IMG/VR virus record: IMGVR_UViG_3300031417_000415
DNA length: 64,000 bases
Reading direction: 5' to 3' (one strand)
Origin: a virus
Lineage: Duplodnaviria; Heunggongvirae; Uroviricota; Caudoviricetes
Shown here: positions 5,685 through 8,345 of the stretch, piece by piece
Numbering within the stretch: the first letter of the stretch is position 1
How the letters are laid out: the number at the start of each line of letters is the position of its first letter
Translations under genes and position numbers: made by a program
The notes under the pieces: generated by a model
Database searches by the model: none
What the model was told of the DNA's origin: nothing
What the model saw: the letters and a program-made list of their open reading frames with translations, nothing else

Positions 5685-8345
5685 ATGAAGAAGCACATCC
5701 TGCTTGCGGCTGCGGCCGTGAGCGCGCTCGTAATGAGCGCAGGCGTACAGGCGCAGAGCATGGACGGCACGAGCACGGCGGTCGGTACCAATTCCACTGC
5801 GCTGAACCGATCGACGGCGGTGGGACAGGCCGCCGCAGCCGACAACACAAGCACGACGATCGGCGAACGTTCGGAAGCGAACTACAACAGCATCACGATC
5901 GGTTCGGACTCGACGGCGACGATCGACTCCACCGTCGTCGGAAACAACAGCTACGCATACAACAGCGCCGTCACGATCGGCACGAACGCGGGCGGACACG
6001 ACGGCGCGGTCACGATCGGCAACAATGCGTACAATGACGGCTACGCGTTCGGCACCAACACCGGCGGCGGCGTGGCGATCGGTTCCAGTGCCGGAAACTA
6101 CAACTACAACCCGAATCCGGGCAACGCGTCCGGGGGCATCGCCATCGGTACGGAAGCCCGCACGCAGACGGGCAGCCAGACCGAAGGCGGCATCGCGATC
6201 GGCAACAACGCGTATGCCTACGAGGGCGGTGTCGCGATCGGATCGGGCGTGCTGGCCGTCGGCAACCAGTTCAACATCGGCACCAAGGACCTGATGACGA
6301 GCGGCTCGCTCACCGCGCAGACGCTGTACGTCCAGAACCTCAACCTCGGCAACGGCTCGATCAGCGCCCAGTCGCTGACCTCCCAGAACGGCATCGTCGC
6401 GAATGGAACGGTCACGAACGTCGCCGACGGCGTGGTCGCCGACGGCAGTCTCGATGCGGTCAACGGCGGACAGCTGAACGCCGTCAAGACCGTCGCGGAC
6501 AAGGCCGGTGCGGACGCAGCGATGGCGGTCAACTCGTCGGGGCAGGCTCTCGGGATGGCGACGACGGCGCTGCTGACAGCCAGCGATGCAACGAACCTGG
6601 CCAATGGCGCGATGATCACGGCGACCGCAGCGGACCAGAAGGCTCAGAACGCACTGGATGCCGCGACCAAGGGCATCGATCTGGCGAGCGAGGCGAAGTC
6701 CGATGCCAAGATCGCCGGCATCACCGCCGACAACGCGATCCAGCGTTCGGACATCGCGAACATCAACGCGGCCACCGCAATCGGCCTGGCCAGCGACGCC
6801 GGCTTCAGGTCGGATCAGGCTCTGACGACGTCGAACGACGCATTCGTCCGCGCCGACGGTGCGAGCCAGCAGGCCAACGCCGCGATCAACGTCGCGACCG
6901 ACGCCAACGTGGCGGCGGGCGATGCCCGCACATTGGCGAACGCCGCTATCGGCTACGCGACGGACGCAAGTGCGAACGCGAAGGATGCGCTCGGCGGCGT
7001 GCTCGGGCTGAACAGCCGCGTCGACAGCGTGGACGCCGCCATCGCCGGTGTCGCCCAGACGACGAACGGCCTCGACACCAAGGTCGTCGCGAACACTCAG
7101 GCCATCGGCGTCGTGCAGCAGAACGTGACGGACCTGACCAGCAGTCTGGCCGGCACGAACCAGTCGCTGATCGCCGCGAACGTCCGCATCGACGACGTTA
7201 CCGGCATCGCGAAGGCCGCACAGGACACGGCGACGTCCGCCAGCGACGCCGCGCGGATCGCAGGCCTGAAGGCCGACCAGTCGACCCTCGTCGCCAAAGA
7301 TGCGAAGAACGTAGCCAACGTCGCCCTGACCGCATCGGACGAGGCCGTGCAGAACTCGGTTCGCGCCAACGTCACGGCGAGCACCGCGTTCGACACCTCG
7401 AACGTCGCGATGACGTTCGCCAAGGAAGCAGACGTCAAAGCCACCACGGCGATCACCAGTTCGACGACTGCCATGAAGACTGCGGACAACGCGCTGGCTG
7501 TCTCGAACGCCACCGCCGTCGTGGCAGCCGCCGCCGACGTCAAGGCGGACAACGCCGTCGCCACGTCGAATGCGGCCACATCGATCGCAGTCGCGGCCGA
7601 AGGTACCGCGAATGCGGCGGTCAAGATGGCAGCCAACGCCGACGTCAAGGCGGACAGCGCCGTCGCCACGTCGAATGCGGCCGCATCGATCGCAGTCGCA
7701 GCCGACGGTACCGCGCATACGGCGGTCAGGATGGCAGCCGCGGCCGACGTCAAGGCCGACAACGCCACTTCGATCGCGGCCGGTGCGGACCGTCGATCGA
7801 GCGAGGCGCTCACGGTGGCGAACGCGATCGTCGTGAAGACGCAGGCGGTAGGCGTGCAGTACGACGATGCAAACCGCGACGTGATCACGTTCGGCCAGCA
7901 GACGGCATCAGCCGGCACCTCGATCCAGTCGGCCACCGCCGACCCGGTGACGCTGCGCAACGTCGCCAACGGCACGCGGGCGAATGACGCGGTCAATCTC
8001 GGTCAGCTCCAGTCGAGCGCGGCGGACACGCTGGCACGCTCGAAGACCTATACGGACCAGCAGATCGCCACCGTCGCAGGGCGCATGCAGTTCGACCTGA
8101 AGGAGGTGCGTCGCGATGCGGACGCCGGAACGGCAGGCGCACTTGCGGTCAACGGCATCCCGCAGACCATCACTCCGGGCGGCAACATGATGGGCGGTGC
8201 CGTCGGTCACTGGAACGGACAGACGGCCTTCGCCGTCGGCCTGAGCCACGCGACCGATGACGGCCGCGTGGTCTTCAAGGCAGCCGGCTCGTTCAACACG
8301 CGCGGTTCCGCCGGCGGCAACGCCGGCTTCGGCGTCGCGTTCTGA
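5685..8345 (+). CDS. trimeric autotransporter adhesin-like protein: Sec signal peptide, long Ala/Thr/Asn-rich head/stalk repeats, YadA-like C-terminal membrane anchor ending in Phe
   Basis: N-terminus MKKHILLAAAAVSALVMSAGVQAQS; C-terminus SKTYTDQQIA...AGALAVNGIPQ...GAVGHWNGQTAFAVGLSHATDDGRVVFKAAGSFNTRGSAGGNAGFGVAF matches the YadA anchor pattern. Confidence 0.6.
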   Translation: MKKHILLAAAAVSALVMSAGVQAQSMDGTSTAVGTNSTALNRSTAVGQAAAADNTSTTIGERSEANYNSITIGSDSTATIDSTVVGNNSYAYNSAVTIGTNAGGHDGAVTIGNNAYNDGYAFGTNTGGGVAIGSSAGNYNYNPNPGNASGGIAIGTEARTQTGSQTEGGIAIGNNAYAYEGGVAIGSGVLAVGNQFNIGTKDLMTSGSLTAQTLYVQNLNLGNGSISAQSLTSQNGIVANGTVTNVADGVVADGSLDAVNGGQLNAVKTVADKAGADAAMAVNSSGQALGMATTALLTASDATNLANGAMITATAADQKAQNALDAATKGIDLASEAKSDAKIAGITADNAIQRSDIANINAATAIGLASDAGFRSDQALTTSNDAFVRADGASQQANAAINVATDANVAAGDARTLANAAIGYATDASANAKDALGGVLGLNSRVDSVDAAIAGVAQTTNGLDTKVVANTQAIGVVQQNVTDLTSSLAGTNQSLIAANVRIDDVTGIAKAAQDTATSASDAARIAGLKADQSTLVAKDAKNVANVALTASDEAVQNSVRANVTASTAFDTSNVAMTFAKEADVKATTAITSSTTAMKTADNALAVSNATAVVAAAADVKADNAVATSNAATSIAVAAEGTANAAVKMAANADVKADSAVATSNAAASIAVAADGTAHTAVRMAAAADVKADNATSIAAGADRRSSEALTVANAIVVKTQAVGVQYDDANRDVITFGQQTASAGTSIQSATADPVTLRNVANGTRANDAVNLGQLQSSAADTLARSKTYTDQQIATVAGRMQFDLKEVRRDADAGTAGALAVNGIPQTITPGGNMMGGAVGHWNGQTAFAVGLSHATDDGRVVFKAAGSFNTRGSAGGNAGFGVAF

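Follow-up and report, generated by a model that had tools for sequence, protein, structure and literature searches.

A divergent trimeric autotransporter adhesin gene carried by a giant, probably viral element

We analysed the gene at positions 5685-8345 of a 64,000-nucleotide (nt) stretch of DNA (IMG/VR record IMGVR_UViG_3300031417_000415, assigned to the Caudoviricetes; the window below means this whole stretch), which a preliminary description made from the letters alone had taken for a trimeric-autotransporter-like adhesin gene. The position was borne out: the open reading frame 5457-8345 has an internal ATG at 5685 and its stop codon at 8343-8345, giving an intact product of 886 amino acids (aa), and the Joint Genome Institute (JGI) gene call on the source contig has the identical start (5685), with the gene called on the Logan contig as well. 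Its third-position GC (GC3, 0.82) is similar to that of the neighbouring genes. From the N-terminus on, the product is laid out as a signal peptide, a repeat head, a neck, a long stalk, an insert, a second neck and a membrane anchor (Table 1). The signal peptide had also been called correctly: judged by inspection it reads MKKHILLAAAAVSALVMSAGVQA/QS, with a charged n-region (MKKH), a hydrophobic core (ILLAAAAVSALVM) and then SAGVQA/QS, which holds an AXA-type cleavage site, and by the same inspection the region has neither a lipobox nor an extended (ESPR) region.

The evidence that carries the identification lies at the C-terminus, which had been likened to the YadA membrane anchor ending in Phe, and which does score as such an anchor. 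Pfam YadA_anchor (PF03895) matches aa 828-886 at 39.9 bits (cut-off 22.7, E 4.5e-10), and in a phmmer search against PDB sequences aa 753-884 align to the Hia translocator (3emo, 2gr7 and 2gr8) at E 1.6e-12 to 2.8e-11. In a model that AlphaFold2 (AF2) built for aa 745-886 from an alignment of eight sequences, a long helix (model residues 60-79) is followed by four beta-strands (90-99, 102-112, 118-127 and 132-140); this is a monomer model, with a predicted local distance difference test score (pLDDT) of just 70-80. When it was searched with Foldseek against the PDB, all four matches at E <= 0.001 were anchors of trimeric autotransporter adhesins (TAAs), namely Hia 2gr8, 2gr7 and 3emo and AtaA 9vnj (E 1.3e-6 for the last), and it superposes on Hia 2gr8, with four strands per chain, at a target-normalised template modelling (TM) score of 0.93 and a root-mean-square deviation of 0.9 Å. 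The last residue is Phe886, an F or W being conserved at this end in the alignments, and it closes a run of alternating hydrophobic residues of the type of the beta-signal read by the beta-barrel assembly machinery (BAM). A Vomp C-terminal match in the whole-protein NCBIfam scan lies far below threshold. Chance cannot account for the combined anchor evidence and Phe886. Similar to Hia, YadA and AtaA, the protein has a signal peptide, the order head-neck-stalk-anchor, two neck motifs, a coiled-coil stalk and a terminal aromatic residue; with all sequence hallmarks present it is, as far as sequence can tell, a TAA of secretion type Vc, for which trimer formation, outer-membrane display and adhesive activity are predicted.

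The passenger between signal peptide and anchor had been described as low-complexity and rich in Ala, Thr, Asn and Val. Its composition is indeed skewed (A 22%, T 10%, G 10%, V 8%, N 8%, S 8%), but it is an ordered repeat architecture that goes beyond plain low complexity. In the head the 13-residue repeat is visible as a 39-nt periodicity in the DNA, and an AF2 model gives a beta-solenoid with two short strands per repeat and pLDDT >90 over model residues 11-90. The Pfam searches for YadA domains that had been proposed found the anchor and, on sub-segments, YadA_stalk, but in the head there was no match to YadA_head (PF05658) even at E <= 10, and no Pfam head model scores; in this, and in its 13-residue repeat, the head is unlike those of Hia, YadA and AtaA. 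Foldseek matches of the head are all weak (E 0.006-0.13), and they mix left-handed beta-helix enzymes with the TAA heads of BpaC (7o23), EibD (2xqh), YadA (1p9h), UspA1 (3pr7) and CbpF. An exhaustive phmmer search with the head against 1.84 billion representatives returned just 12 matches at E <= 0.001. The two at the top (COR-A/Big_3 and a BspA leucine-rich repeat) are unrelated repeat proteins, probably compositional matches, and were set aside. Several distant head relatives bear YadA_head repeats, and homology supported transitively through these relatives suggests that the head is a divergent YadA-like head.

Two necks with YadA_stalk motifs flank the stalk, and on sub-segments both score above the PF05662 cut-off of 28.4 bits (35.4 bits for neck 1, 36.1 bits for neck 2); the whole-protein Pfam scan gave the anchor plus one sub-threshold match. 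Neck 1 in addition matches the AtaA fragment 3wpo among PDB sequences (E 0.0015), and the motif columns of neck 2 are kept in alignments with other TAAs. The stalk is a coiled coil, and the periodicity analysis that the preliminary description had called for supports this: spectral power at a period of 3.50 is 8.93, as compared with 0.25 +/- 0.26 in shuffled sequences, of which 0 of 2000 reach 8.93. Both core positions are occupied by Ala, occasionally by Ser, Val, Ile or Leu, the Pfam Alanine_zipper match being weak (E 0.0045), and the heptad register runs without a stutter until it stops at the non-helical insert. Periods of 3.67-3.75 are typical of the right-handed segment of YadA, and no power was found there when such a pentadecad periodicity was sought in the stalk. 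Unlike in Hia, YadA and AtaA, the stalk is unusually long and regular, with its Ala-core heptads following each other without stutters or interspersed domains. From standard coiled-coil geometry, at about 0.15 nm for each stalk residue and with head and necks added, the mature fibre would be roughly 80 nm long.

A comparison of two alleles shows how the gene evolves. Over window positions 1-9076 the contig L024 (Ga0308164_10004286) from a sibling metagenome has about 97% identity to the window, and its TAA allele, likewise of 886 aa, is intact too. The two proteins do not differ at all in the signal peptide or over aa 721-886, the insert is invariant, and for head, stalk and anchor the ratio of nonsynonymous to synonymous divergence (dN/dS) comes to 0.29, 0.38 and 0, respectively. 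The exception is a cassette at the distal end of the stalk, where 58 of 70 residues differ and dN and dS are both saturated (about 0.9-1.0). The TAA gene is therefore real and, outside the cassette, under purifying selection (dN/dS 0-0.38). Flanking orphan genes have dN/dS of 0.08-0.6 against the sibling, and are therefore real genes too. Exposed surface proteins that diversify through recombination are expected to show just such a mosaic swap beside an unchanged anchor. An exact 39-mer of the gene matched only two sibling contigs among JGI metagenome contigs.

Table 1. Features of the adhesin gene and of its surroundings, in window coordinates.
Feature	Position	Strand	Details
DUF3307 membrane protein, upstream neighbour	5236..5607	+	123 aa; weak Pfam DUF3307 match
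Shine-Dalgarno-like AAGGGGA	5673..5679	+	5 nt 5' of the ATG; direct sequence reading
TAA coding sequence, complete	5685..8345	+	886 aa plus stop; open reading frame and translation
Sec signal peptide, aa 1-23	5685..5753	+	predicted cleavage VQA/QS; by inspection
Head, aa ~29-205	5769..6299	+	~13 turns of the 13-residue repeat xS/AxxxIGxxAxAxx; beta-solenoid
Neck 1, aa 243-274	6411..6506	+	YadA_stalk motif TNVADGVVADGSLDAVNGGQLNAV; pattern TNVADG..DAVNGGQL
Stalk, aa 262-716 (455 residues)	6468..7832	+	~65 uninterrupted heptads; alanine-zipper-type coiled coil
Variable cassette, distal stalk end, aa 276-345	6510..6719	+	equal-length unrelated coiled-coil segment in L024
Tandem duplication in stalk	7522..7766	+	105-nt unit (35 aa = 5 heptads), ~2.3 copies, 91-94% identity
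Non-helical insert, aa 717-758	7833..7958	+	VKTQAVGVQYDDANRDVITFGQQTASAGTSIQSATADPVTL; between stalk and neck 2
Neck 2 and conserved YTD motif, aa 759-793	7959..8063	+	YadA_stalk motif NVANGTRANDAVNLGQL; pattern NVANG..DAVNLGQL
Membrane anchor	8067..8342	+	pore helix aa ~804-823; strands aa 834-843, 846-856, 862-871, 876-884; GFGVAF end
GC-rich stem-loop, 14 bp, no U-tract	8354..8384	+	9 nt past the stop codon
IS605-type TnpB (OrfB_IS605, Cas12f1-like_TNB)	13061-14320	- (minority strand)	family match

Where does such a protein come from? Against 5.8 billion proteins only the C-terminal 15-25% aligns, at identities of 42% or less, and the nearest relatives of the anchor are 40-54% identical over the C-terminal 135-142 aa. 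Two of the closest, P0001 and P0004, are encoded in ordinary bacterial chromosomes (64-65% GC), where they adjoin BamD/RecN/LigA or CobS/CobT/L28. Since the nearest anchor relatives include chromosomal ones, we take the gene to be an acquisition from a host and not a member of a phage-specific lineage, the anchor having most likely been captured from a high-GC diderm host lineage.

TAAs in phages are nevertheless not confined to this element, as we found by tblastn of the neck-anchor region against 50,697 GenBank phage records. Complete TAAs are encoded by three cultured jumbo phages: Burkholderia phage FLC9 (322 kb; gp240, BDD79759.1, 721 aa), Burkholderia phage BCSR5 (227 kb; QRE00188.1, 1261 aa) and Erwinia phage pEa_SNUABM_5 (267 kb; QQO90415.1, annotated as 'putative autoagglutinating adhesin', 835 aa). 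Like the protein studied here, all three have a short classical signal peptide and a YadA_anchor match above the cut-off, and their genes sit in runs of small co-oriented hypothetical genes. Their passengers differ, being mostly coiled coil in FLC9 and pEa_SNUABM_5, while that of BCSR5 has canonical head and neck repeats. In the neck-anchor alignment they are 28-35% identical to our protein, as compared with 34-54% for bacterial TAAs, and since the jumbo-phage TAAs are thus no closer than the bacterial ones, this looks like repeated independent capture rather than one viral lineage. No function of these three TAAs is reported in the literature that we searched, nor did we find there a paper discussing TAAs in jumbo phages. 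The upstream DUF3307 neighbour has its sole match among the fetched TAA-bearing phage loci in FLC9_gp248 (31% over 108 aa, E 2.5e-11), whose gene is 3 kb upstream of that of the FLC9 TAA; any functional tie between the two genes is uncertain. Shorter anchor-bearing genes occur as well: Pantoea phage MED16 encodes a 300-aa anchor-bearing protein annotated 'adhesin', an annotation that cites the adhesin of Cronobacter phage GAP32 (which we take to be a jumbo phage), and a T4-like Salmonella phage has a small anchor-bearing gene. A search of IMG/VR turned up TAAs with signal peptide and anchor on nine viral contigs (103-524 kb), and about fifteen anchor matches on prophage-sized contigs of 10-55 kb. 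On one huge-phage-sized IMG/VR contig (L082, IMGVR_UViG_3300037418_001546; 523,836 bp, 48% GC) the locus 3816-5315 encodes a 499-aa TAA with signal peptide and anchor, and there no window protein other than the TAA has a match, making it an independent example.

The window is part of JGI contig Ga0308169_10000012 (552,210 bp; JGI 3300031420), which is well above the 200 kb taken as the lower bound of jumbo genomes. Its 64 kb hold 91 called genes at 90% coding density, 84 of them on the plus strand (92% co-oriented), and the same gene layout runs on for 10 kb past each window end, so that at least 84 kb were read, over which about four in five genes are without a Pfam family. Those that were assigned in the window include R2K ATP-grasp, HAD_SAK_2, ART-PolyVal, PTH2, RNA ligase, PNKP, Band_7, cation efflux, ClpP and ADP-ribosylglycohydrolase, and within the 10-kb flanks Lar restriction alleviation, M23 peptidase and PilZ; a PhdYeFM antitoxin is also among the genes of the element. 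The window matches 37 PHROG families. By tblastn its proteins have relatives in uncultured phages of 462-485 kb, in Lak megaphages (462-550 kb for uncultured and Lak phages together) and in T4-like phages; Agrobacterium and Sinorhizobium jumbo phages match through ClpP only, and PNKP is linked to an SPFH/Band_7 gene here as in Xanthomonas jumbo phage X1. The ClpP gene matches 'head maturation protease' PHROGs, ClpP being equally bacterial. Jumbo phages have been described as carrying R2K ATP-grasp enzymes and as modifying the host surface against their rivals (PMC7824862). An RNA-repair set of RNA ligase and PNKP (HAD_PNKP plus AAA_33) lies at 47438-49662, and a separate 877-aa kinase/Metallophos/Rnl-T4 fusion was observed just upstream of the window (contig L016, 4928-7561).

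A number of other features of the element deserve mention in their own right. Between 31408 and 40470 a cluster of proteins with hydrophobic, signal-peptide-like N-termini (judged by eye) occupies both strands and interrupts the one-strand layout. Thrombospondin type 1 (TSP1_ADAMTS) repeats occur here in a 1272-aa protein on the minus strand, a 350-aa protein combines TSP1 with DUF642, and further members are a 476-aa PTD-repeat protein (this one without a hydrophobic N-terminus) and proteins of 318 and 203 aa. Apart from the TAA, several more surface or secreted proteins seem to be encoded by the element. A 524-aa orphan gene (18256-19830, plus strand) is present in sibling contigs L005 and L007 and absent in L004, L006 and L008; tblastn finds relatives of its product in LR756500 (E 9e-18), an uncultured phage of 462 kb, and in Lak megaphages. 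A GLDLNPEW motif in the product resembles the first RuvC motif of TnpB/Cas12-type nucleases, so that this may be a mobile nuclease gene. The 250-aa protein at 26439-27191 (plus strand), for one cluster member of which JGI gives the name 'glycyl-tRNA synthetase', has a 71% identical relative on a 63.8-kb IMG/VR contig (UViG_3300034069_001263) that no other window protein matches. Two paralogous small genes 19 kb apart on the plus strand (10453-10803, 116 aa, and 29762-30109, 115 aa) have a common N-terminus, MSKPIPASVEANRAK. No tRNA genes or Rfam families were found in the window. Downstream of the TAA gene, the RNA fold of 8343-8400 reaches -34 kcal/mol (z = -5.6), with 0 of 200 shuffles equally stable, and the stem-loop there is possibly a terminator or an mRNA-stabilising hairpin; the simple terminator scan missed it because it has no T-run. 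That scan, over 5000-9000, yielded neither promoter-like sites nor plus-strand terminator-like sites.

Taken together, we hold it probable that the gene encodes a functional type Vc TAA and that a giant element, most likely a huge phage, has it as an accessory (moron-like) gene. The preliminary description had placed the gene in a phage-like region, and gene content and organisation bear this out, but no virion or packaging gene accompanies them in the 84 kb read, and one index reports a contig of more than a megabase with the same proteins. Several observations weigh against our interpretation. Besides the unscored head with its weak fold matches, the lack of a promoter-like site, the chromosomal location of two of the closest anchor relatives and, for a phage origin, the absence of tRNA genes from the window, these are that capsid, portal, terminase and tail genes are all missing from the 84 kb, that the exact 39-mer of the TAA gene is not found in IMG/VR, and that in the protein cluster table the longest contig with the window's exact proteins measures 1,059,898 bp against 552,210 bp for the source contig (a ratio of 1.92). 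To our knowledge 1,059,898 bp exceeds every phage genome. This contig may be a megaplasmid, a chromosome or chromosomal island, a larger replicon of another kind, or a concatemeric assembly. PMC10747093 mentions viral contigs that are concatemers. We lean only slightly towards a huge phage as the identity of the element itself, and regard another giant extrachromosomal element or island as possible though rather unlikely.

Should the element not be viral, the gene could be an ordinary bacterial TAA on a megaplasmid, chromid or large island of a high-GC proteobacterium, serving bacterial adhesion or biofilm, with the phage-like genes as cargo. The size of the longest contig and the lack of virion genes fit this, as do the presence of IS605-type TnpB, PhdYeFM antitoxin, PilZ, a cation-efflux protein and Band_7, and the GC of the contigs bearing two of the closest anchor relatives, which is near that of the window. 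DNA-level matches were absent from IMG/VR, GenBank phages and PLSDB alike (for the first by the exact 39-mer, for the latter two by megablast of window positions 1-25000). Yet against a replicon of this sort stand the short genes, 92% of them co-oriented and about 80% orphans, and the lack of any housekeeping, replication or conjugation gene over 84 kb. Moreover, for many genes phages, huge ones included, provide the only recognisable relatives, cultured jumbo phages carry a similar gene in a similar neighbourhood, and the element was not found in GTDB representative genomes, either by the exact 39-mer or by a scan for relatives of TnpB. We consider a non-viral replicon doubtful. Attempts to place the element by single proteins were of little help: TnpB was rejected as a link to a host, its best relative among GTDB representatives being just 49% identical and its matches scattered over phyla, and the R2K protein used as a probe found no related viral contigs. 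The exact TAA protein sequence is also missing from the protein cluster table, though the positions of its gene are indexed there.

If the element is a phage, the question becomes what the protein does for it. One proposal of the preliminary description, that the phage uses a YadA-like trimeric fibre as its receptor-binding protein, has precedents, in that short Gly-centred beta-solenoid repeats like those of the head are found in phage tail-fibre and structural proteins, and that some distant head relatives are phage fibres in which YadA_head repeats are joined to a T7 tail-fibre N-terminus or to Peptidase_S74. YadA-domain structural proteins have also been detected in cyanophage virions (PMC9146016), and the protein has a weak match to phrog_17426 ('adhesin', category tail, E 5.8e-4). 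However, two of those YadA-head-repeat fibres end in Peptidase_S74, one matches the T7 tail-fibre N-terminus and none has a YadA_anchor match, whereas our protein has a signal peptide and an anchor, has neither the Phage_T7_tail attachment N-terminus nor the Peptidase_S74 chaperone by Pfam, and has no tail or baseplate genes within +/-10 kb. The cleavable Sec signal peptide and the BAM-dependent barrel with its terminal Phe direct the protein to the cell envelope, and because they route it away from virion assembly in the cytoplasm, a virion component is very unlikely indeed and this proposal is not supported. A different lifestyle, though not a different identity of the protein, is implied by lysogenic conversion, also raised in the preliminary description, in which an Eib-like TAA of a temperate prophage gives the lysogen adhesion or resistance to serum or predators. 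That prophages carry Eib TAAs is an established fact (Sandt et al. 2002, cited by PMC8065619). EibA, C, D, E, F and G of E. coli prophages are TAAs in phage genomes, as our protein probably is, and they are surface-expressed; in the Stx1c phage phiSTEC1589 an Eib-like TAA adjoins the lysis-region genes Bor and Rz, where Eib genes classically sit as morons, and the roughly fifteen prophage-sized IMG/VR contigs would also suit such a role. But Eib genes belong to temperate lambdoid prophages of about 40-60 kb, near the lysis/Bor region, and the window neighbourhood has no lambdoid genes; over the 84 kb there is no integrase, repressor or att-like feature, and co-oriented genes run throughout without a prophage-sized boundary. 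Beyond the generic anchor no specific similarity to Eib was seen either, the PDB sequence search giving no Eib match and the fold search of the head only the weak one to EibD 2xqh (E 0.016), and the nearest analogues in gene context are jumbo phages, which were isolated as plaque-formers and are not known as lysogens. We judge lysogenic conversion to be quite unlikely.

For an accessory TAA of a huge phage, the likeliest role is display on the outer membrane of the carrier cell, as the targeting signals suggest. By analogy with what is known of TAA biology, the chain would cross the inner membrane of the carrier or infected diderm cell via Sec, three anchors would be assembled by BAM into one 12-stranded barrel, and the passenger would be threaded outward and zip into a rigid trimeric fibre with the repeat head at its tip. 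Such a fibre would re-surface the host cell to the benefit of the element, perhaps by making cells sticky or autoaggregating, or by sterically shielding receptors from rival phages, with shielding or adhesion acting during a long infection or a carrier state. At present we can only speculate on a broader version, namely that outer-membrane TAA fibres recur in jumbo and huge phages as an accessory module not remarked on until now, repeatedly captured from hosts and deployed on infected or pseudolysogenic cells against rivals or in clumping with fresh hosts; this is a tentative idea that we think has less than even prospects by some way, and its examples are the three cultured jumbo phages, the nine IMG/VR contigs of 103-524 kb and the present 0.55-1.06 Mb element.

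TAAs have been studied almost entirely as virulence adhesins of pathogens, and the Eib family on temperate coliphages is the only well-characterised link between phages and TAAs that we know of. What we describe here is a genuine, intact and divergent TAA. Chromosomes or virulence plasmids are the setting of Hia, YadA and AtaA; here it is a giant, probably viral element, which fits a recurrent and little-noticed jumbo-phage pattern. The protein is a clear-cut natural case of an alanine-zipper coiled coil that is very long and free of stutters, and were the 1.06-Mb contig a genuine single viral genome, its carrier would be larger than any known phage genome. The gene adds to a pattern in which very large phages, including lytic cultured ones, repeatedly carry complete outer-membrane adhesin genes in accessory regions. 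If those genes are expressed during infection, a virus would install a layer of fibres of about 80 nm on its host, which, if true, would bear on superinfection exclusion, on aggregation and biofilm formation of infected cells, and on the changes in the host brought about by phage therapy candidates (FLC9 and pEa_SNUABM_5). Now that cultured phages with TAAs have been identified, the idea that such viruses remodel the surface of their hosts is directly testable.

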